Shown here piece by piece: positions 618-53,403 of a stretch of 64,000 bases of DNA. This DNA is from a virus. The notes below the pieces were generated by a model. That model saw only the letters and a list, made by a program, of their open reading frames with translations, was not told the origin of the DNA and did not search any database. The first letter of the stretch is position 1. Each line of letters starts with the position of its first letter. The stretch is taken from IMG/VR virus record IMGVR_UViG_3300025276_000022; one strand, 5' to 3'. Made by a program: the position numbers and the translations under genes.

Positions 618-850
618 TGAAAAGTTATCAGCGAGTCAAGGGGCATAGTAACTTAGTAAGGGATACACGAACTGGCGTTATACTAAATACAAACAAGACA
701 GAAATAGAAACGTCAAAAAAACTAAAACTAGTACAACAAGAAAAAGACCAACGAATTACACGTCTTACCGACGAAGTGGACACTCTTAGAAATGATGTCC
801 AACAAATAAAAGAATTGCTTTTTCGTTTAGTAGAGGATAAACATGAGTAA
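617..850 (+). CDS. Conserved small coiled-coil hypothetical protein
   Basis: VKGHSNLVRD..TGVILN motif followed by heptads; coupled to the upstream stop (TAATG). Confidence 0.7.
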   Translation: MKSYQRVKGHSNLVRDTRTGVILNTNKTEIETSKKLKLVQQEKDQRITRLTDEVDTLRNDVQQIKELLFRLVEDKHE

Positions 851-1919
851 CACTATACAATCAGTCCATCTCGCAGACAACATCAACGCGGCCTTTGATA
901 AGATCAATGAGAACTTTGAACTCGTCGCAACGGGTGTGTTTGGTGGGACGGTGGACTTTACAGATGTTGATGCTGGGATCGCAGCAAATGCTTCTGCATT
1001 ATCTTCCCTTACCACTAGTATCACTAACATTGATGGCACTTTAACTATACTGGCATCGGATGTCACATCTCTATCGACATCACTGACCGACACTCAAGCA
1101 GGCATTACCGCAAATTCTACTGCGATGGCATCGCTTACTAGTAGTATCACACAGACAGAAAATTCACTCGTTATACTTGCGCAAGACATAGTAGACTTAG
1201 AAACTAATTTTACTGGCAACATAACCATAGACTCAGATTTGGTAGTTTCTGTACTTGCAAATAGCACCGCATTCTCTGGATTGGAGTCTTCGATTACGGT
1301 CGTCGATGGTAGAGTTACTGCTCAATCTTCGGACATTACTGAGTTGTCTAATGAGATTTCCATTGTAGATTCCGACAATAAAGTTTTGATCGCAGCGGAA
1401 GGTAACGCACGTTCAGCACTAACCTCTTTAGTGTCCACTAATGGAAATAATATATCCACGATTCAGGGAAGTATTACTGCCCTCACAGGTAAAATAGACA
1501 CAGTAGACTCAGATGGTAACCCCACCACTTTCGTTGCACTAGCAACAGAGTCACTACAGGCGGAAGTCTCGCGAGTAGAAGGATTGATAACAACAAATTC
1601 TACTTGGGGTATAGACCTAGTTGCTGGTACCGAAGCCAATCCACATATTGCTGGTATCAAGTTCGGTAATGACGGTGCAACCGCAGATTTCGCATTGACC
1701 GCAGACACATTCAAGATTATCAATGCTTCTAATAACGAAATTCAACCATTCACTATTTCTGGTAATGAAATACAATTGTCAAATGCGACAGTTACAGGGA
1801 ATCTAAATATAGGTTCAAACTTGAGTGGTGCGCGTACCGTAATTACAGACGATGTCACTAAGGTATTTGACGCGAATAATCAACTACGTGTTGCACTAGG
1901 TAATCTAACCGGAATATAG
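843..1919 (+). CDS. Tail-fibre/tail-tip protein: coiled-coil shaft plus lambda-J-like (DUF1983-like) C-terminal domain
   Basis: S/T/A-rich heptads, then IAGIKFG..ADFALTADTFKI..PFTISGNEIQLSNATV and a KVFDANNQLRVALG end. Confidence 0.6.
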   Translation: MSNTIQSVHLADNINAAFDKINENFELVATGVFGGTVDFTDVDAGIAANASALSSLTTSITNIDGTLTILASDVTSLSTSLTDTQAGITANSTAMASLTSSITQTENSLVILAQDIVDLETNFTGNITIDSDLVVSVLANSTAFSGLESSITVVDGRVTAQSSDITELSNEISIVDSDNKVLIAAEGNARSALTSLVSTNGNNISTIQGSITALTGKIDTVDSDGNPTTFVALATESLQAEVSRVEGLITTNSTWGIDLVAGTEANPHIAGIKFGNDGATADFALTADTFKIINASNNEIQPFTISGNEIQLSNATVTGNLNIGSNLSGARTVITDDVTKVFDANNQLRVALGNLTGI

Positions 1920-1926
1920 GTGTGTT

Positions 1927-2208
1927 ATGAGTTACGGACTATACATTTCTGATGGTGTTAATGGAGCAGTTATTACAAACTCCAATAATATTTTTAATGA
2001 GGAAATATACCAGTCTCAGGCTGGAACTGTTACAGGTAATAGCACCCTTGATTTGAATATAGAAGATGTTGGTAATCCGGCATTAATATCTATAGAATTA
2101 ACAACAAACAATAGTGTAGAATTCTCGACTTCCGGAAATACATTATCGTTACAGAACCCTCTATCTGGGGACTACGCATTCAATTTAAAAGTTTTTAGGT
2201 TCCAATAA
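1927..2208 (+). CDS. Small tail-tip accessory protein
   Basis: MSYGLYI start typical of genes following J-like tip proteins; predicted beta-rich. Confidence 0.5.
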   Translation: MSYGLYISDGVNGAVITNSNNIFNEEIYQSQAGTVTGNSTLDLNIEDVGNPALISIELTTNNSVEFSTSGNTLSLQNPLSGDYAFNLKVFRFQ

Positions 2209-2981
2209 TGTCAGATGATTATGGGTTGGTTGTAAAAAACAATAATGGCGGTGTCATGTTTGATTCTCGTAAGGGAATGAGCAGTTACGTCGTAAGAGAA
2301 ATCGGGACAGGAGTTGAAACTTCATTCACCTTAAACGACGGTGATATGGTATTTGCTAAACGACCATCAAGCACTTCTAATAATTGGTGGACGGATAAGA
2401 TAATATTTGGAAGTAGTACCCTCGGCCCACTGGGCCCACCGGAAAACCCTAGGTCATATGGATTCTATGCATTCACAGATTTATCGTCAGGCGTATCGGC
2501 AGAAGTCAACCCAGTCGTAATGGATTACTTTGTTGTGACACATGCAAAGAACATAGATGTTAGTTCCGAAGACTATGGTTTGATAGTAAAAAATAGTGAT
2601 GGTACTCTTCAATTTGACAGTCGTTCGATAAAGAACGGTCAGCACTTTTTGATCACAGACTACTATCCACCTAGAACTTTTGACGGTGACCCATATAGTG
2701 CACCAGTAGGTGGACTAGGAGATATGGATGGTTACTGGTCGATGAATTGGACGACGGGACTTGATATTGCAAATGATGTTGCAGCAATATCAGTACGTGG
2801 ACTGAAATGGATAGGTGTAAGTTCCAGTGCAGGAGCAACAGGGCCCGTGATCGAAGCATTCTTTGATGTTGGTGGTGAAGAAGGTGGATTTGATGGTGGA
2901 GAGGGTGGTGGCTCAACAGTTTCTACAAGAACGTACGAAAACCGAATAAACGGTATGATTCTGGGTGCAGAACTAATTTAA
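2208..2981 (+). CDS. Tail-tip accessory / candidate receptor-binding protein
   Basis: Two DYGL.VKN..G...FDSR motifs; Gly-rich C-terminus. Confidence 0.5.
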   Translation: MSDDYGLVVKNNNGGVMFDSRKGMSSYVVREIGTGVETSFTLNDGDMVFAKRPSSTSNNWWTDKIIFGSSTLGPLGPPENPRSYGFYAFTDLSSGVSAEVNPVVMDYFVVTHAKNIDVSSEDYGLIVKNSDGTLQFDSRSIKNGQHFLITDYYPPRTFDGDPYSAPVGGLGDMDGYWSMNWTTGLDIANDVAAISVRGLKWIGVSSSAGATGPVIEAFFDVGGEEGGFDGGEGGGSTVSTRTYENRINGMILGAELI

Positions 2982-2990
2982 GAGGAACAC

Positions 2991-3431
2991 ATGATTTATT
3001 ATATTGCGACCATTAAAAACGGTCAGATACAAACATTGAAATTAGCAAGCGGAGATAACGCAGCTGAAGGAGTCCAAGAAAATGGGACAACTTTAGTACA
3101 CATTGATTTTCCCATTGACAATCGAATAGAATTTATCGAGACTAATTACTGGGACGGTAAGTGGTTACAAAGAGAACGTCCACCAAATGAACACTCTTCG
3201 TGGAATGGGTCATCGTGGGAATGGGATCTAGAATCCTTAATGCCCCAAGTAAGATCTGTCCGTAATGCTATGTTAGTGAGAAGTGACTGGACTCAAATGC
3301 CAGACTCTCCATTATCAGAAGATGACAAGTTAGACTGGCAAATATATCGTGAGGAACTAAGAAGTCTATCTTTTGTCCAAGATAATATATCTAATGTAAA
3401 AGATGTGGACTGGCCAGCAGAACCAAAATAA
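2991..3431 (+). CDS. Tail fibre assembly chaperone-like protein
   Basis: VRSVRNAML..SDWTQMPDSPLS...WQIYREELR...WPAEP motif. Confidence 0.75.
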   Translation: MIYYIATIKNGQIQTLKLASGDNAAEGVQENGTTLVHIDFPIDNRIEFIETNYWDGKWLQRERPPNEHSSWNGSSWEWDLESLMPQVRSVRNAMLVRSDWTQMPDSPLSEDDKLDWQIYREELRSLSFVQDNISNVKDVDWPAEPK

Positions 3432-3606: not shown

Positions 3607-6600
3607 ATGTCAGCATCTAGTATACCTCTAAAAATTAAGAATAGCGATGGTGACCTACAGGAACTTACCCCAGCAGAAGAGATGTATCTCGCTGTAAAGG
3701 TAGGTGAAGCACTTGCAGAGGCCTCTGCTGGTGATATAGGCGATATCAGTCTCACCAATGGTGATAACATAGGTTCATTCGTAGATTCATTCTATAATGA
3801 AGCATCGGGCACACACCCTATGTCTAACATCACTGGTACTACAGTAACCACTACCTTGAAACAGGTTGGTGGCTCTGCGAGTGAATCTGGTAGCAATTTT
3901 GCCCGTCCTGTCGGTTATTATGCAGATAATGCAAATCCTGGCTTCTACGAAATGGTAGATGCAGATTTGGATAATCTAACAAATCGCGCACTTGTGAATC
4001 TTGAAACCTTAGAACTTCAAGGTGCATTCACACTTTCGTCCACATCGCCTGGCGGTGATTGGGCAAAACATATTGACACAGTATTCTCAGATACTCGTGG
4101 AGACGGAACTTCGATAGACTTCCATATTTGGAAGAAAACCGCACTTGCATCACCCCCAGCTGGTATTGTAACCACTCGGCCAGTTGCAACCGATTATGAT
4201 GGATCCTCAGCATTTAGCGGTCTAAAAGAAATGTCTGACGCAGAGATCAAGTACACTCTCGGTCAACGTGCTAAGTCACTTAGGTCGACAGCAGGAGCCA
4301 TTGGTTCTTATCAACTTCGTTCATCTGTACAAGGCGCTCCAACCTCAGCCGGAACTTGGGTTCCTCGTGGTACTGCCGCGAATACTCAACGTACTATTGT
4401 TGATGGAACTTATTCTCGCACTCGTGCTTCTGCATATGCTCGTACAAGAGTTTCTGCATACAGTCGTAATCGTGTATCAACTTATACTCGCAACAGCGTA
4501 GATACATTTGCACGTACGTTTGCTGGTGAATATACTGGTACATATTCTCGTGAATTTGCCGGTGAATATACACGTGGCTATGCAGGGGATTACACTAGAA
4601 CTCGTCCCTCAACATATACCCGAAATCGATTAACTGCGTTCACTGGTTACTTTGCTGGTACTTACAACCGTGCAAGAGTTTCAGTATACACACGCAATCG
4701 TGTAACACCATTTACCGGAACCTTCTCACGTACTCGTGCATCAGCATACACACGTGGTCGTGTTTCAACTTACGCAGGGACTTACGCAAGAACTCGTACT
4801 TCTGTTTACACAGCGGATTATACTCGTGCCCGTGTATCAACGTACACCGGAACTTACGCAGGAGTTTATTCTCGTAACCGTGTATCTGCATATGCTGGAA
4901 CTTACTCACGTACACGTTCTTCTGCTTATAGTCAACCATATACTCGTACACGTACTTCTGCATACTCTGCGGATTATACTCGTACACGTATAACTAACTA
5001 CACACGTGATCGTGTAACCAACTTTGCTGGCGTTTTCTCTCGTGCTCGTGTTTCTACATATACTCGTAATCGCGTTACAAACTTTGCTGGAAACTTCGTT
5101 GGTAACTATGCTCGTGGATTCGTAGGTAACTATTCTCGTGGATTCGTAGGTAACTACGCTCGTGGATATGCTGGCGACTTCGTCGGTAACTACGCTCGTG
5201 TTTCTACTCGTACATCTACTCGTACTCGTTACTCTGCATACGCTCGTACATCTACTCGTACTCGTTACTCTGCATATGCTCGTGACCGTGTCACTAACTT
5301 TGCTGGTGACTTCGTAGGTAACTACGCAACAACCTTTACTGGCAACTTTGCGGGCAACTATTCAAGAGACCGTGTAACAACCTTTACTGGTGACTTCGTA
5401 GGTAACTACGCAACAACCTTTACTGGCAACTTTGCGGGCAACTATTCAAGAGACCGTGTCACTAACTTTGCTGGCGATTTCGTAGGTAACTATGCAACAA
5501 CCTTTACTGGCAACTTCGCAGGTGATTACGCAAGAACTTCTACTAGAACTTCTACGCGTACACTAGACTATACTCGTTATTTGTACTATACTGGCAACTT
5601 TGCGGGCAACTATTCAAGAGACCGTGCATTCTCATATGTTGGAGATTACTCTAGAGCTCGTGCACAAGGAACTTCGTACACTGGTAACTATGGTCGTACT
5701 AGAACAGGTAGCTACACTGGTAACTATGCACGTACTCGTACTGCTTCTTACCTCGGTAACTATACTGGTAACTTCGCTGGTAACTATATCGGTAACTATA
5801 CACGAAACCTGATCTCAACTCGGACAAGTATTACCCTCGGAGGAACATCATATTATGCTCGATTCGTGTATAATCCATACATGGGAGAACTGGTTCCGGT
5901 TTTCTATACCCGTACTGCAGCGACCGCATATTACGCTGGTAACTTTGTTACTACCATGGCGTATACGACAGACTCCACACGTGCCTACCCGATGGCCTTT
6001 ACTAGGAATCGTGCCGCGAGCTATGTAGGCGACTATGCTCGTGTCCGTGCATTCTCTTATGTTGGAGACTACTCAAGAGCTCGTGCCCACACTCTTTACT
6101 ACACTGGTAACTATGGTCGTACTAGAACAGGTAGCTACACTGGTAACTATGCACGTACAAGTACTCGATCTAGCAATGTTCTCGCATATTACGGTAGAAC
6201 TGGATATTATGCTGGTGACTTTGTTGGTAACTATGGTCGTACTCGCGTAACTAACTATGTTGGTGATTTCACTAGAACTCGTGTAACTAACTATGCTGGA
6301 AATTTCGTTGGTAACTATGGTCGTACTCGTGTAACTAACTATGTTGGCGACTTTGCTAGAACTCGCGTAACTAACTATGCTGGTAACTTTGTCGGTAACT
6401 ATGGTCGTACTCGTGTAACTAACTATGTTGGTGACTTTAGTCGCAACCGTGTAACTAACTTCGCTGGTAACTTCGTCGGTAACTATGCTCGTGCATATGC
6501 TGGTGATTATGTTGGTAACTATGCTCGCGCATATGCTGGCGACTTCGCTGGTAACTATACTGGTGATTACGCTCGTACTTCTACAAGAACTCGTTACTCT

Positions 6601-7422
6601 GCGTATATCCGTACTCGTACGTCGGCATATGTCCGTAACCGTTCTTCTGCGTACGCAAGAGATCGTATAACTAACTTCGCTGGTGACTTTACTGGTAACT
6701 ATGCAAGAACCTTCACTGGTAACTATGCACGTAACTATGCAGGCAACTTCATTGGTGATTTTGTTGGTGATTTCGCTGGTAACTATGTTGGTAACTACAC
6801 TAGACAGTTCGGTGGTAACTATGTCGGTAACTATGCACGTAACTACGTAGGCGAATATGCCGGTACATATAGCCGTGGATTCGCTGGTGAGTACACAGGA
6901 ACTTACACTGGTGTCTACTCGAACACGTTCGGTGGTAACTATGTTGGTAACTATGCACGTAACTTCGCAGGCGAATACACTGGAACTTACTCGAATACTT
7001 TCACTGGTAACTACTCACGTGGTTTCTCTGGTCAGTACACTCGCGACTTCGCTGGTGACTTCGTAGGTAACTATGCAAGAACATTTGCTGGTGAGTACAC
7101 TGGAACGTATGCAAGTGACTTTGTAGGTGACTTCGTAGGTAACTATTCACGTGACTTCGTAGGTAACTACGGTCGAGTTCGTGTATCGGCTTACTCAAGA
7201 CTACGTAACTCAACATACACTGGAATTTACTCTCGTGACCGTGTATCAACCTATGTTGGTGACTTCACAGGTAATTACTCACGTGGATTCACAGGTGATT
7301 ACGCTCGTGACTTCGTAGGTAACTATGCTAGAGCTTTCGTAGGTAACTACACTGGCGCAACAATCAGTGATACATTGGTTAACACACCAGAAAATTATAC
7401 CTTATACGTACGGGTTGCTTAA
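3607..7422 (+). CDS. 1271-aa tetrapeptide-repeat protein, predicted giant beta-hairpin virion fibre
   Basis: ~268-aa N-domain, then ~980 aa of [YF]xG[ND], YxRx, RxSx, RxTN tetrads with mirror complementarity about NPYMG. Late promoter; lies among fibre genes. Confidence 0.7.
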   Translation: MSASSIPLKIKNSDGDLQELTPAEEMYLAVKVGEALAEASAGDIGDISLTNGDNIGSFVDSFYNEASGTHPMSNITGTTVTTTLKQVGGSASESGSNFARPVGYYADNANPGFYEMVDADLDNLTNRALVNLETLELQGAFTLSSTSPGGDWAKHIDTVFSDTRGDGTSIDFHIWKKTALASPPAGIVTTRPVATDYDGSSAFSGLKEMSDAEIKYTLGQRAKSLRSTAGAIGSYQLRSSVQGAPTSAGTWVPRGTAANTQRTIVDGTYSRTRASAYARTRVSAYSRNRVSTYTRNSVDTFARTFAGEYTGTYSREFAGEYTRGYAGDYTRTRPSTYTRNRLTAFTGYFAGTYNRARVSVYTRNRVTPFTGTFSRTRASAYTRGRVSTYAGTYARTRTSVYTADYTRARVSTYTGTYAGVYSRNRVSAYAGTYSRTRSSAYSQPYTRTRTSAYSADYTRTRITNYTRDRVTNFAGVFSRARVSTYTRNRVTNFAGNFVGNYARGFVGNYSRGFVGNYARGYAGDFVGNYARVSTRTSTRTRYSAYARTSTRTRYSAYARDRVTNFAGDFVGNYATTFTGNFAGNYSRDRVTTFTGDFVGNYATTFTGNFAGNYSRDRVTNFAGDFVGNYATTFTGNFAGDYARTSTRTSTRTLDYTRYLYYTGNFAGNYSRDRAFSYVGDYSRARAQGTSYTGNYGRTRTGSYTGNYARTRTASYLGNYTGNFAGNYIGNYTRNLISTRTSITLGGTSYYARFVYNPYMGELVPVFYTRTAATAYYAGNFVTTMAYTTDSTRAYPMAFTRNRAASYVGDYARVRAFSYVGDYSRARAHTLYYTGNYGRTRTGSYTGNYARTSTRSSNVLAYYGRTGYYAGDFVGNYGRTRVTNYVGDFTRTRVTNYAGNFVGNYGRTRVTNYVGDFARTRVTNYAGNFVGNYGRTRVTNYVGDFSRNRVTNFAGNFVGNYARAYAGDYVGNYARAYAGDFAGNYTGDYARTSTRTRYSAYIRTRTSAYVRNRSSAYARDRITNFAGDFTGNYARTFTGNYARNYAGNFIGDFVGDFAGNYVGNYTRQFGGNYVGNYARNYVGEYAGTYSRGFAGEYTGTYTGVYSNTFGGNYVGNYARNFAGEYTGTYSNTFTGNYSRGFSGQYTRDFAGDFVGNYARTFAGEYTGTYASDFVGDFVGNYSRDFVGNYGRVRVSAYSRLRNSTYTGIYSRDRVSTYVGDFTGNYSRGFTGDYARDFVGNYARAFVGNYTGATISDTLVNTPENYTLYVRVA
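4411..7347 (+). repeat. 12-bp (4-aa) period coding repeat region with higher-order 84-bp duplications
   Basis: GGTAACTA-type units throughout; three 84-bp units at 5275-5526 and three at 6232-6483; ~110-bp direct repeat at ~5623-5735 and ~6046-6158. Confidence 0.9.
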
Positions 7423-7533: not shown

Positions 7534-7995
7534 ATGAGTCGTAAGCAATGGATGGATAATGCCTTCTGGGAAACAGAGGACAAGAAAGAAGTCAACTGTA
7601 TTCTAGAACTTGAAGATGATGTGGGTCGTGTAACACGTCAACAAATGATGCTAAACCGTGCTAATAAAGATGGTAGTGATAATGAATTGTTTAATGAATT
7701 AATTGACGCTCTAGGTGAAGAGGCTATTGATAAGGAAACTATCGACAGAGTCACTCGCAAGAAGGCAGAGAAAGAAGAAGAGAAAATGCGTGATGAAGAA
7801 CATCTAAAGGCACGCAAACTAGAAAAACTCTTTAACTATAAAATGGAAGCGTTCGAAGTCGAAGAGATTAAACTCTCTAAAAACCGTAAGTTAAAGGCAA
7901 AATTGCGTCGTGCAAAATCAAGAATTGAAGTAGATCTTTATTCAATCATGATTCTACAAGACCAACTTGAGGCCGCTGCTGATGGAAAAGAGTAA
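7534..7995 (+). CDS. Hypothetical charged helical protein (possible fibre chaperone)
   Basis: GGAGA RBS; E/K/R-rich; overlaps the next gene. Confidence 0.7.
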   Translation: MSRKQWMDNAFWETEDKKEVNCILELEDDVGRVTRQQMMLNRANKDGSDNELFNELIDALGEEAIDKETIDRVTRKKAEKEEEKMRDEEHLKARKLEKLFNYKMEAFEVEEIKLSKNRKLKAKLRRAKSRIEVDLYSIMILQDQLEAAADGKE

Positions 7996-8719
7996 AGGTT
8001 TTATTATAGTTGCGTCTAAGAAACGCAACTTTTATTCGTACGCAATCAACCTTGCTGAATCTCTTAGGGATTATTATGAACCTGAAGAAGAATGTAAGAT
8101 TTGTTTGGTAACCGAAGAACAATTTATTGATGATCGTGGTCGTGATGTTGCGGATGACATTATAATCTGTGATGACCATTATCGCGCTAAGTTATGGGGG
8201 ATGGCAAAATCTCCGTATGATATAACAATGTACATTGATGCTGACATGGAATGTGAGCACGAAGATATTATTAAAGTTTGGGATGAAATGAAAGATCACG
8301 ACGTGGTCTTCTCAGCATTGACTGATGACCGTGATTACATTTATGCGGAACGTGATTTCTCCACACCAGAAGGTATGGCTAAATTTACTCTTTGTGGTGG
8401 TGTGTGTCTATATGATATGTCTAAACCAATAGTTCGTGAGTTTATGGATGATTGGTGGGACTTAACATACAGACAAATGAATGATACTTGGTGGCCAGAA
8501 GGTTATGTTGATTCTCTAAAGTCTTGGGATCAATTCTCTCTTTGGTGGTTAACTGAGAAAGAACCAAAATATAAGGATCTTAAAGTCGGCATCTTTGATG
8601 ATGACTTGAGATGGAATTACTATAATGCTCTTAATTGGGCACAAACGAAACCCGAAAATGGGCCGGTGATATTACGTCACTTCTCTGCTGGGTTAAATAA
8701 GGATACTCCAATCGTATGA
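7967..8719 (+). CDS. GT-A fold glycosyltransferase (GT8-like); true start probably ATG 7982
   Basis: KLWGMAKSPYDITMYIDAD (DxD), GGVCLY, WDQFSLW, RWNY, ILRHF motifs. Confidence 0.7.
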   Translation: MRPLLMEKSKGFIIVASKKRNFYSYAINLAESLRDYYEPEEECKICLVTEEQFIDDRGRDVADDIIICDDHYRAKLWGMAKSPYDITMYIDADMECEHEDIIKVWDEMKDHDVVFSALTDDRDYIYAERDFSTPEGMAKFTLCGGVCLYDMSKPIVREFMDDWWDLTYRQMNDTWWPEGYVDSLKSWDQFSLWWLTEKEPKYKDLKVGIFDDDLRWNYYNALNWAQTKPENGPVILRHFSAGLNKDTPIV

Positions 8720-9423
8720 CACAGGTAAACGACCAATATCTCAGACACGTCGAGGTTAATAACCCTGAACTGCTAGAGATTCTAAACGAATACTCCAAGT
8801 TGCATACCATGCAAGGTTTCGAAGAAAACTGTCACTTGTCCTCAAAACAAGCCATCCGTCAGCGCGACTTCTATGTGGGCCCTAAGCACATGGATGAGAT
8901 TGTCGGACAAGGTACAGGACACGAAGGTTTTCCAGACGAACTTGTTGGTTATAACTTTAAACTTTCTGACAAAGCACACATGATGTTTGAGCAGGGCGCA
9001 GACCCTCTCTTTAAAAGAGACATGACTCTACATCTCCGTGACTTAAACGATAAGATGATGAACTTCTTATCGGTCAAGCATAATGCTCTTGCAGCAGTAT
9101 ATCCGCCAGGTGGATTCATCTCATGGCACAACAATGCAAATGCTCCGGGCTATAACCTAATCTTTTCTTACTCAGAAGACGGTTCAGGTTACTTCGAATA
9201 TATTCATCCTGAAACCAAGGAAGTTATTCGTAGTCAAGACCAAGCAGGTACATGGACATGTAAAGCAGCATACTTCGGTCATTACGGACAAGATGATCAG
9301 ATATTGTATCATGCCGCTTCTACTGATGATTGGCGTTGTACTGTATCTTATGTATTTGATCACTCAGACGAATCTATCGCTTTGCGTGAAATGGTATTAA
9401 CAGATATCGAATCTGTAGAATAA
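8716..9423 (+). CDS. 2OG-Fe(II) oxygenase-like DSBH protein (paralogue 1)
   Basis: YPPGGFISWHNN...YHAA....RCT: Hx(N)...H...RxT arrangement. Confidence 0.6.
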   Translation: MTQVNDQYLRHVEVNNPELLEILNEYSKLHTMQGFEENCHLSSKQAIRQRDFYVGPKHMDEIVGQGTGHEGFPDELVGYNFKLSDKAHMMFEQGADPLFKRDMTLHLRDLNDKMMNFLSVKHNALAAVYPPGGFISWHNNANAPGYNLIFSYSEDGSGYFEYIHPETKEVIRSQDQAGTWTCKAAYFGHYGQDDQILYHAASTDDWRCTVSYVFDHSDESIALREMVLTDIESVE

Positions 9424-9458: not shown

Positions 9459-9498
9459 GAGGTAGACGTTTTATAAACAGTTTAAGGTTTTGAAGAAT

Positions 9499-9855
9499 AT
9501 GGCAACTTACGAAGATTTCACAATAGATCAAGGTTCTGATTTAGCTCTACAATTAGAGTTAGTAAATCCTGATGGTTCAACAAAGAACCTCAATGGATAT
9601 ACAGTTAGTGCTAAGATGAAGAAAACCTTTCGAAGCACAGCTGAAGATACCGTTGATTTCTTATCAATTGTAGCAGATCCTGCCGAGAGCGGTGTTGCTA
9701 CAATCTCCCTCACAAATATCCAAACCGATGCCCTATCTGCTCGTGGTAGATATGTCTATGATGTCGAACTGAGTTACTTAGACTCTGCCGGTAATTCCAT
9801 CGTAGAAAGAGTACTAGAAGGCAAAATTAAAGTCAACCCTTCGGTCACAAGGTAA
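9499..9855 (+). CDS. Conserved virion structural protein (Ig/BppU-N-like)
   Basis: IDQGSD...GRYVYDVEL...RVLEGKIKVNPSVT pattern common in marine T4-like phages; ATG 9499 preferred to TTG 9490. Confidence 0.65.
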   Translation: MATYEDFTIDQGSDLALQLELVNPDGSTKNLNGYTVSAKMKKTFRSTAEDTVDFLSIVADPAESGVATISLTNIQTDALSARGRYVYDVELSYLDSAGNSIVERVLEGKIKVNPSVTR

Positions 9856-50925: not shown

Positions 50926-53403
50926 ATGACAAAATTTTACTCTTCTGCTATCCGTATGGGTAAGCACATTCTATATCGCGGTTACGAGAACGGCCTACAG
51001 GTCAAGAAACGTATTCCATTCCAACCTAAACTATATGTCACCAGTCAGAACGAATCTGATTGGAAGACTCTGGACGGTCTCCCCGTTGCCGAGTGCGTCT
51101 TGGACTCTATGTCTGATGCGACTGACTTCCTCAAGAAGTATGCTGATGTGCATAACTTCAAGGTATATGGTAACAACAATTACGTTGCCCAGTATATCGG
51201 TGAACAATTTCCCAATAAGATAAACTTCGACCGCGATCTAATCCGGACTGCCAATATCGATATCGAGGTTTATAGTAAGGAAGGTTTCCCTGAGCCAGGC
51301 AAGGCTGCATATCCAGTGACCTCTATTACAATGCGCAAGAATGATGGCACCTACTGGGTGTGGGCATGTGGAGACTATGTCACTACTCGTGAAGAAGTCC
51401 TCTATATCAAATGCGACAACGAGATGGATCTTCTCCGCAAGTTTATTGAGCACTGGTCTCACTACGCTCCTGACATTCTGACAGGTTGGAACAGTCGGTT
51501 CTTCGATATCCCATACATCGTTAACCGTTGCGTTAACCTGTTCGGTGATGACACGTTATTGAAACGACTATCTCCTTGGGGTGCGGTACGTGAACGTAAT
51601 GTAACTATTCAAGGTCGCGCCAATCAGGAATACGTGATTGAAGGTGTCGAGCACCTAGATTACATTGAAATCTTTAAGAAGTTCACACTCAACACTCTGG
51701 GTCAACAAGAATCCTATCGTCTAGACCATATCGCCCACGTTGTCTTGGGTGAACGCAAGTTGTCCTATGAGGAGCACGGAAACCTCCACGCTCTTTATGA
51801 AAACGACTTCCAAAAGTTTATTGACTATAACATCAAAGACGTGGAGTTGGTTCACAAGATCGATGAGAAACTCGACTTGATTACTCTGGTACTCACCATG
51901 GCATATCGTGGTGGTGTTAACTATGGTGACACACTTGGTACTACTAACATCTGGGACAGCATCATCTACCGTATGCTGAACAAGATGAAGGTCGTAGTTC
52001 CTTCCAAATCTGAGAAGCCTAAGACTTCATATCCGGGCGGTTATGTTAAAGAACCTCAAGTTGGGTCACACGACTGGGTTACCTCTTTTGATTTGGCGTC
52101 TCTATATCCCAACATCATTGTTCAATATAACATGTCACCTGAGACTGTGATGGACGGTTTCCATAATGGTGTAAGCGTCGATAAGTTTCTTGATGGATCA
52201 TACAAGGTATCTGAGTCTAACGTCTCTATTGCGCCAACTGGAGTCGCTTTCTCACATGATAGAGAGGGGGTCATTCCTACGGTGATTAAACAATACTACA
52301 CGGAACGTAGTCTTATCAAGAAGGAGATGTTGAAACTCCAGCAGGAATACCAGAAGAATCCGACTAATGCTTTGGCCTATAGGATATCGTCACTGGACAA
52401 CCAACAGATGGCTATCAAGATTCTTATGAACTCCCTCTATGGTGCGCTCGGTAATCGATACTTCCGTTACTTTGATCAACGTGTTGCAGAGTCAATTACT
52501 CTTGCAGGGCAACTTGCAATCAAATGGGCAGAGAGAGCAGCCAATAATGAGATGCAGAAACTTCTTAAAACAGATGAAGATTATGTTGTAGCAATTGACA
52601 CGGATTCTCTATACATTCGTATGTCTGCCCTTGTGGATAAGTTTTCTCCTAAAGACCCTGTAAAGTTTCTTGACAAGATATGTTCCGAGCACTTCGAGAA
52701 AGTTCTGGAAAATTCTTATAATGAGATGGCAGAAGTTACTGGTGCGTACGAGAATCGTATGGTGATGGAACGTGAGGTAATCGCAGACCGTGGTATCTGG
52801 ATGGCGAAGAAACGATATATCCTTAATGTGCATAACTCTGAGGGTGTGCAGTACGCAGAACCTAAACTCAAGATGATGGGTATCGAGGCAATCAAGTCAT
52901 CGACTCCTTCGGTTGTCCGTGACAAGATGAAAGAAATCTTCCGCGTCATTGTAGAAGGTACCGAGGAAACCACCCAGAGATTTATCCGTGAGTTCAAGAC
53001 TCTGTTTAATACATTACCACCCGAAGATGTTTCGTGGCCCCGTGGTATCTCTAATCTCGATAAGTGGAAAGACCGAGAGACTATTTTCAAGAAGGGTACT
53101 CCCATACATGTTCGCGGTGCGTTATGTTATAACAATCTAATCAAGGAGAATAATCTTGGTAATAGATATGAACTGGTCAAGCCAGGCGAGAAGGTAAAGT
53201 TCGTCTATCTAAAAGTACCGAATCGTCTGGGTGAAAACGTTGTGGCATATCCTCAACATCTCCCCGAAGAACTGGGACTGGGTAAGTATATCGATTACGA
53301 CTTAATGTTCAGTAAGACTTTCATTGCCCCTCTCGAACCAATTCTTGATGCAGTCGGTTGGGCTTCTGAACCTCGTGCCACATTGGAGGACTTCTTCGGA
53401 TGA
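50926..53403 (+). CDS. gp43: Family B DNA polymerase
   Basis: DIEV; FDIPY; SFDLASLYP; [13 protein letters not shown]; DTDS; KKRY; C-terminal LEDFF clamp-binding motif. Confidence 0.97.

Follow-up and report, generated by a model that had tools for sequence, protein, structure and literature searches.

A phage protein with two mirrored tetrad-repeat arms, probably a new fold-back fibre architecture

In the needle of bacteriophage T4 gp37, each strand consists of tens of residues and the whole structure is ~15 nm long. The gp37 chain runs to the tip and back in antiparallel strands and binds the host at the point of reversal (PMC7291167, PMC6957217), and the needle is a trimer that holds seven iron ions coordinated by His (PMC6957217). 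In the present study, we analyzed a gene in a stretch of viral DNA of 64,000 nucleotides (nt) (IMG/VR record IMGVR_UViG_3300025276_000022; the whole stretch is called the window below), which encodes a protein of 1271 amino acids (aa) with two long repeat arms. Sequence comparison and partial structure models make it probable that the chain of this protein folds back, that is, an N-terminal arm (N arm) runs out, the chain reverses in the centre, and a C-terminal arm (C arm) returns antiparallel to the first. The protein thus resembles gp37 in its predicted fold-back and its variable distal part, and a fibre assembly chaperone gene is found nearby in both cases; the reversal of the chain at the distal end is suggested here by models and by evolution. 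Unlike gp37, it has arms of ~480 residues made of 4-aa repeats, which are longer by over tenfold, and it contains only one His in aa 261-1250 and no HxH iron sites. Neither gp37 nor lambda Stf, for which a needle of this kind is also predicted, shows Pfam or PDB sequence similarity to it.

The triple beta-helix of T4 gp5 and gp12 and the triple beta-spiral of adenovirus are built of parallel chains, with the termini at opposite ends and with repeats of 8-22 aa. These parallel trimeric fibres are like the present protein in having a beta-rich repetitive shaft that is conserved where it attaches and variable where it binds, but the protein of the window has a period of 4, its termini lie together in the models of homologues instead of apart, and insertions and deletions (indels) in its family are mirrored. 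The gp38 adhesin of phages S16 and T2, which consists of Gly-rich polyglycine II (PGII) helices, is a single chain of ~250 aa on a trimeric fibre. It shares with the present protein a repetitive Gly-rich element and variable distal loops, and a single chain would suit the pseudo-threefold N-terminal domain (N domain) described below. In contrast to gp38, the present family combines a period of 4 with aromatic residues and Arg, ranges from 400 to >3000 aa, and lacks sequence similarity to the adhesin. The Gly pattern of collagen-like or PGII proteins, with Gly as every third residue or in poly-Gly motifs, was not seen in the repeats, which have a period of 4 and Gly at only ~42% of position 3.

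Extended antiparallel structures are also found elsewhere. OspA of Borrelia and SasG of Staphylococcus form single-layer beta-sheet rods, and the pore hairpins of lysenin and aerolysin and the arms of HU-type proteins are two-stranded. Cross-strand aromatic ladders and aromatic-over-glycine pairs are known to stabilise antiparallel sheets. The structure proposed here is like that of lysenin, HU, OspA and SasG in its extended and antiparallel beta strands and in lacking a conventional hydrophobic core. However, those proteins have 20-50 residues per strand or consist of tandem domains, and none of them forms a single hairpin that extends over hundreds of residues and has its repeat types in mirrored order. 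An initial annotation, made from the sequence alone, had recognised no described fibre architecture like this one. We likewise obtained no described match from Pfam or PDB, and neither the family nor such an architecture was described in the papers found in our literature search. Sequence and models together indicate that this is probably a new fibre architecture.

Anatomy of the protein and the mirror relation of its arms

A four-phase hidden Markov model (HMM) trained on the arms divided the protein into five parts. The whole gene and these parts are as follows (model confidence is the predicted local distance difference test, pLDDT, of AlphaFold2, AF2).

3607..7422, + strand: whole gene of the putative fold-back fibre protein (P0001), 1271 aa, a single intact open reading frame (ORF)
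3607..4404, + strand: conserved N domain, aa 1-266, from the HMM segmentation; pLDDT >90 in AF2 models of homologues
4405..5829, + strand: N arm (putatively outgoing), aa 267-741, tetrads, rich in YxRx-RxSx near the base, from the HMM segmentation
5830..5904, + strand: irregular centre, aa 742-766, containing YYARFVYNPYMGELVPVF, the sole non-repeat segment within the repeat region
5905..7359, + strand: C arm (putatively returning), aa 767-1251, tetrads, rich in FxGx-YxRx near the base, from the HMM segmentation
7360..7422, + strand: C-terminal 20 aa (TISDTLVNTPENYTLYVRVA) and stop, ending in YTLYVRVA, a strand conserved throughout the family

As the initial annotation had stated, units of 4 aa make up the repeat region. 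The tetrad consensus recovered by us has Y/F/R at position 1, A/V/T/S at position 2, G/R/S/T at position 3 and N/T/D/A at position 4. Phase slips are confined to residues 691, 776, 786, 832, 852, 858 and 864, and none occurs in 267-690 or 865-1251. In composition, aa 261-1250 (nt 4387-7356) contain 127 Arg, 132 Tyr, 120 Gly, 40 Asp, 8 Glu, one His and no Lys. The repeat region is extremely cationic and free of Lys, with a net charge of about +79.

The initial annotation had aligned aa 269-648 forwards with aa 868-1247 backwards in 95 gapless tetrad pairs. Both stretches proved to be phase-continuous, and the table of pairs was reproduced exactly. When S denotes the sum i+j of the numbers of two opposed residues, the pairing rules at S=1515 were also recovered; that is, of the 15 RxSx tetrads, 13 are opposite xYxR and the other two opposite YSN, and each of the eight RxTx tetrads is opposite [FY]xG. 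The four pairs named nearer to the centre (Y669-G846, Y695-G820, G705-Y810 and G729-Y786) were all correct.

We measured the mirror relation by residue mutual information (MI), in which the N arm (aa 269-648, n=380) was fixed and the partner was slid over 227 values of S. The six highest values were obtained at S=1517, 1519, 1513, 1515, 1518 and 1521, at 1.33-1.14 bits, compared with a mean of 0.75 over all S (standard deviation 0.17). The best parallel offset gave 1.01 bits, which is below the antiparallel peak. The MI of tetrad types was 0.76 bits at S=1519 and 0.52 at S=1515, and it was at most 0.30 for the others within ±12 tetrads, the null from shuffled tetrads being 0.137±0.038. Sections of 100 aa were also taken from the arms. 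Those of the N arm at 267, 367 and 567 picked S=1513, 1517 and 1511, respectively, from ~600 candidates each, and three of the four non-overlapping N-arm sections thus chose S within 1511-1517. Sections on the C-terminal side of the centre picked S=1516 and 1511. The full-arm MI and the independent sections together indicate that the mirror is real from base to apex.

A sharp and unique MI peak at S=1515, with the centre exactly at P757/Y758, had been predicted in the initial annotation. These two points were not borne out, since the signal is spread over the odd S values of 1511-1521, residue MI has its maximum at 1517, and the data favour S of 1517-1519. The partner of the 15 RxSx tetrads is invariant at every odd S of 1511-1521 and is mixed beyond this range, which means that RxSx faces the local motif G-x-Y-x-R-x-F-x-G-x-Y and not one residue. 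At S=1515 there are 19 Arg-Arg oppositions. At S=1519 there are 64 aromatic-Arg, 40 aromatic-Ser/Thr, 38 aromatic-Gly and 36 Gly-Arg pairs, with zero Arg-Arg, Gly-Gly or aromatic-aromatic pairs among 190. From the sequence, the most likely register is i+j=1517-1519, and the apex would lie somewhere in aa 756-761. The irregular centre (aa 742-766) is the probable apex or turn, the centre of reflection falling within aa 756-761. The opposition of aromatic residues to Gly or Arg follows largely from the period of 4; the non-trivial part of the mirror is the mirrored tetrad types and the mirrored segment boundaries.

Four repeats of the DNA lie within the arms.

5284..5516, + strand: tandem array of 84 nt (28 aa) in the N arm, 2.8 copies, 92% matches, found with Tandem Repeats Finder (TRF)
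6208..6492, + strand: tandem array of 84 nt (28 aa) in the C arm, 3.4 copies, 87% matches, found with TRF and by repeat search
5598..5742, + strand: direct repeat copy 1, aa 665-712, beside the apex, 145 nt, 84% identity to 6021-6165
6021..6165, + strand: direct repeat copy 2, aa 806-853, beside the apex, found by repeat search

The two 84-nt arrays have different units and an equal period, and they are located at mirrored sites (reflection about aa 757-760). The copies of the 145-nt direct repeat are also mirrored about the centre (665+853=1518). No inverted repeats of at least 24 nt are present within the gene, and a palindrome of DNA or RNA as the source of the mirror was ruled out on this ground. 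The mirror therefore belongs to the protein and not to the nucleic acid.

Coupled evolution of the arms and structure models of homologues

Homologues were found as 171 matches in 90% clusters and as 427 representatives of 50% clusters (E<=1e-3), nearly all of them metagenomic. The N domain occurs in one GenBank phage only among 50,697 phage records, namely Phage C48C1 (OQ984149; GenBank lineage Kyanoviridae). Common to the members of the family are an N domain, tetrad repeats and a C-terminal strand, which carries the motif ETYTLYVR[TV]A in almost every complete homologue, and their centres hold 0-1646 aa of non-repeat sequence. Centres of 25-1646 aa agree with the earlier proposal that the centre is the variable distal part. 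Some members (P0002, P0044, P0094) contain PF14312 (FG-GAP-like) and PF13385 (Laminin_G_3) domains, which are plausible carbohydrate- or host-binding modules; in P0002 the extra domains sit between the N domain and the repeats. A subclass comprising P0072, P0096, P0118, P0207, P0223 and others has three near-identical repeat segments of ~110-120 aa, with two homologous small globular domains as separators. P0051 and P0090 (93% identical) differ by a second domain inserted in the middle of a repeat segment of 254 aa.

For the comparison of arm lengths, the N domains were clustered at 70% identity, which gave 94 clusters, 61 of them with two repeat segments. The ratio N/(N+C) was 0.45-0.55 in 36 of these 61 two-arm homologues, and the 33 nearest to equality (0.46-0.54) have arms of 83-371 aa and centres of 29-1646 aa. 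Nearly all members begin the N arm with YxRx-RxSx units and end the C arm with FxGx-YxRx, and in P0008 and P0010 the starting and ending unit types are swapped together.

Close pairs of homologues differ by indels in both halves. P0038 and P0045 (87% identical) differ by +36 at 348 and by +38 at 1246, the expected mirror of the former being 1250-1285. P0025 and P0026 differ by -16 at 409 in one half and by -4 and -12 at 818 and 827 in the other (mirror 821). The changes in P0013/P0011 are -12, -12, +8 and -16 against -12, -13, +8 and -16 at mirrored sites, those in P0175/P0192 are 16, -5, 40 and 10 against 16, -6, 42 and 8, and those in P0031/P0125 are 10 and 12 against 10 and 12. The net changes of the two halves are correlated (Spearman 0.66, p=0.0015; 20 independent pairs with repeat-type indels).

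We further analyzed covariation of the 40 residues at the start of the N arm with the 40 at the end of the C arm in 129 sequences from 68 clusters, using MI with average product correction. The peak was a single antiparallel diagonal with a value of 0.035, against a permutation null of 0.0005±0.0044. This diagonal, which corresponds to Y269 opposite G1250 and thus to S=1519, was the top one in 131 of 200 cluster bootstraps, and the diagonal equivalent to S=1515 was top in 14 of 200. Because the permutation null ignores phylogeny, the meaningful part of this result is the comparison between diagonals. The MI scan was also applied to 78 homologues with correction for bias, as uncorrected MI rises with falling n; in 13 of them the peak fell within -1 to +3 of the expected S, versus 4 expected. 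Phase slips pooled from 76 proteins showed a small and weak central excess. P0143 has four exactly mirrored phase slips, for which a periodicity of 26 aa may partly account.

The homologue of Phage C48C1 is a protein of 3347 aa, in which repeat segments of 1032 and 431 aa surround an insert of 71 aa (1297-1367); four or five globular domains, with repeats of ~80 aa between them, come after the second segment. When the segment 1400-1760 was scanned over 672 offsets, S=2666, 2664, 2665 and 2662 ranked top (z ~4), and the peak S coincides exactly with the centre of the 71-aa insert. The lengths of the segments can be written as 1032 = 601+431, followed by a repeat segment of 431, and the leftover 601 residues are near the 631 repeat residues that lie past the inner hairpin. 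Judging from these sequence features, the C48C1 homologue appears to hold a nested hairpin in which 431 residues are paired with 431. This arithmetic suggests that the homologues with arms of 2:1 and those with three segments may be stems with side hairpins. The analogy to an RNA stem-loop, which had been drawn in the initial annotation, fits this nested hairpin.

AF2 was run with family alignments on two complete homologues, P0004 and P0130. In P0004 (711 aa; 54% identity to the window protein over the family alignment), the N domain had pLDDT ~90 and the last 20 residues 80-95, with long strands at 251-283 and 674-709. In P0130 (436 aa), the last 25 residues had pLDDT 71-97, with strands at 260-286 and 406-434. 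The sums of the strand ends, 957-960 in P0004 and 692-694 in P0130, match the sums of the repeat boundaries from the HMM, 959 and 694. These agreements mean that in the models the C-terminal strand lies on the N domain and a two-stranded ribbon is begun, and the N and C termini lie together as had been proposed. Comparison of the modelled arm base with the long hairpins of lysenin and HU-like proteins gave Z=2.2, a value that is descriptive only. A complex prediction for P0001 549-652 with 863-966 had a score of 0.00 with the fold of the partner uncertain, and it counts neither way.

In the N domain, motifs of the type xxE(L/M)xxAE...G...L recur at ~aa 17, 113 and 206. Alignment of internal repeat 2 with repeat 3 gave z=4.2 and the remaining pairs were not significant; the AF2 models of the homologues have three N-domain helices at a spacing of ~95 aa. 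We think that aa 1-266 are probably an attachment domain with an internal threefold repeat, that is, probably a pseudo-threefold domain formed by a single chain. Such a domain would, if anything, favour a monomer, and a monomeric fibre that caps or replaces a trimer is conceivable. Structure searches gave the N domain no convincing relative; its best matches were weak ones to MABP and MACPF/perforin-2 accessory domains, which are beta-prism-like, with VIA-align Z of 4.5-5.1. A Foldseek search of PDB and BFVD with the P0130 model returned nothing at E<=0.001, and an ESM Atlas feature search with the N domain returned unnamed viral clusters alone, at 0.81, which is within noise. The protein as a whole belongs to no Pfam family and matches no PDB chain at E<=1, and its sole PHROG match is weak and of unknown function.

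The fold-back model and its alternatives

Fold-back of the chain is the best-supported reading of these results, and it rests on the evolutionary coupling and on the partial models. In this model, the conserved N domain (aa 1-266) and the last 20 residues would pack at one end, the N arm (267-741) would run outward, the chain would reverse at ~742-766, and the C arm (767-1251) would come back antiparallel. The arms would be strands with a four-residue period, in which one face carries aromatic residues alternating with Gly, Arg, Ser or Thr and the other face carries small residues (A/V/T and N/D/T). The large residues of one arm would lie opposite small or cationic residues of the other. Because the arms must stay flush, an insertion or a tandem expansion in one arm would have to be matched at the mirror site of the other. 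Globular domains as large as ~1600 aa take the place of the centre in relatives, and the centre would therefore be the distal and presumably host-binding part, the end with both termini attaching to the virion. The models point to the docking of the termini, and evolution points to the coupling of the arms; the beta-ribbon geometry along the whole arm, a length of the order of 150 nm and the role as a fibre are what we infer.

A further step, which we put forward only tentatively, is that these proteins form a new class of fibres, namely single-chain antiparallel ribbons of hundreds of residues whose strands match through complementary tetrads. In such a class, an aromatic residue would be opposite Gly, Arg, Ser or Thr and like would never face like. 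The ribbons would evolve in the manner of RNA stems, with mirrored indels, matched expansions, globular 'loops', and nested or branched hairpins.

Several results weigh against the fold-back of the chain. The initial annotation had proposed a single antiparallel beta-ribbon of roughly 160 nm, probably oligomeric, and the antiparallel coupling of the arms is supported by the near-equal arms, the mirrored indels and the covariation at the base, but in both AF2 models the arms beyond ~30 residues have pLDDT ~25. Arms are unequal, often about 2:1, in 25 of the 61 two-arm homologues, and 12 clusters have three repeat segments of ~115 aa; both classes need extra side hairpins to fit fold-back. Mirrored indels had been expected in homologues and are size-matched in several close pairs, as reflected in the correlation given above, but one-sided indels were seen in 6 of the 20 pairs, mostly in multi-segment architectures. 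In the bias-corrected scan, the peak was within ±10 of the expected S in only 26 of 78 homologues (17 by chance). The net charge of about +79 (127 Arg against 48 Asp and Glu) is awkward for an isolated two-stranded ribbon, and our literature search gave no proteomic or genetic data on presence in the virion or on a need in adsorption.

The relation i+j=S, the equal arms and the mirrored indels would also be predicted if extended molecules associated antiparallel, head to tail, with the C-terminal strand of one chain docking on the N domain of its partner as in a domain swap. The docking in an AF2 monomer model does not separate such a swap from fold-back, and short members such as P0130 show no turn-like break in the middle of their fully phase-continuous repeat. 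The C48C1 homologue speaks for fold-back at this point, because its nested hairpin at S=2664 is far off the global centre, where a single global dimer fails. A distal tip also accords better with central inserts as long as 1646 aa and with the restriction of conservation to the N and C ends, and a symmetric rod with identical ends would be odd for a phage fibre. We consider this association between chains quite improbable. An ordinary parallel fibre (a beta-solenoid or triple beta-helix), or a disordered spacer of low complexity, in which the mirror is an accident of the history of the repeats, would be consistent with the lack of structure that AF2 gives to the arms and with the absence of a clear mirror peak in many homologues, and much of the pattern of aromatic residues facing Gly or Arg comes from the period of 4 alone. 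Such a fibre or spacer, however, leaves unexplained why the C terminus is confidently docked to the N domain in the models, the equality of the arms over a 4-fold range of length, the size-matched mirrored indels, the inner hairpin of C48C1 and the antiparallel diagonal of covariation, and we regard it as very improbable.

Within fold-back itself, the chain might form a trimeric needle of the gp37 kind, much lengthened, that is, a six-stranded bundle with the aromatic/Gly face inside. Phage fibres are mostly trimers, a tail-fibre assembly chaperone gene lies directly upstream, and a narrow core would be filled by the large and small residues that alternate on one face. This sub-case would, on the other hand, bury dozens of Arg on that face. 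Neither gp37 nor any PDB chain resembled the protein in sequence or profile, the single His in the repeat region leaves no HxH metal sites, and the N domain is apparently a threefold repeat within a single chain, which suggests one chain per fibre. A trimeric bundle is in our judgement unlikely, and fold-back of the chain remains the reading that we prefer.

Genomic setting and meaning of the finding

The gene lies in a baseplate/tail-fibre gene module, which is the location of a generic phage tail fibre. The features upstream are as follows.

843..3431, + strand: upstream fibre module, with matches to Pfam PF09327 (E=9.7e-8) and PF16778 (E=1.8e-13) and to PHROG tail families
2991-3431, + strand: tail-fibre assembly chaperone gene, upstream of the fibre gene

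In this module, a 358-aa protein, which has a Phage_Tail_Tip domain and matches PHROG tail families, is followed by two small proteins and then by the chaperone, and the + strand carries every large ORF of the window. Phage C48C1 was also the sole DNA match among the 50,697 phage records. Its homologue (L001 12096-22139) is annotated as 'hypothetical protein' and is flanked by baseplate-wedge and tail-fibre genes, and in two metagenomic relatives the fibre gene is flanked by a DUF4815 giant protein and gp13. The DNA polymerase of the window (50926-53403) has 73% identity to that of C48C1 and ~46% to those of cultured Synechococcus myoviruses. These identities indicate a T4-like marine myovirus of a sparsely sampled lineage.

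Three small overlapping genes (153, 250 and 235 aa) come after the fibre gene at 7534-9423. A trio of the same sizes is present in C48C1 (L001 22234-24114) and in two metagenomic relatives (L002 14018-15889 and L004 14700-16601), where it does not always adjoin the fibre gene. An oxygenase domain was not detected in the trio of the window, and its only family match was a sub-threshold one to GT2 (E=0.004); the reading of these genes as oxygenases in the initial annotation was thus not reproduced. At 9490-9855, a protein of 121 aa has a sub-threshold match to an LtfC-like beta-sandwich domain (PF23926, E=1.3e-4), which makes it a possible further accessory protein of the fibre.

Should the fold-back ribbon prove true, it would be an architecture without a solved example, in which the length is fixed by two complementary arms. 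It would explain how fibres of ~20 to several hundred nm with a freely swapped distal domain arise in a large uncharacterised family, which has 427 clusters at 50% identity in metagenomes and is present in one of 50,697 GenBank phage records. It would also be a rare case in which, as in RNA, compensatory indels reveal the pairing of secondary structure in a protein, and it would offer a simple, designable repeat code for long and thin protein rods. In marine myoviruses of an abundant group with uncharacterised receptor-binding proteins, it would identify the probable host-recognition end of the fibres.

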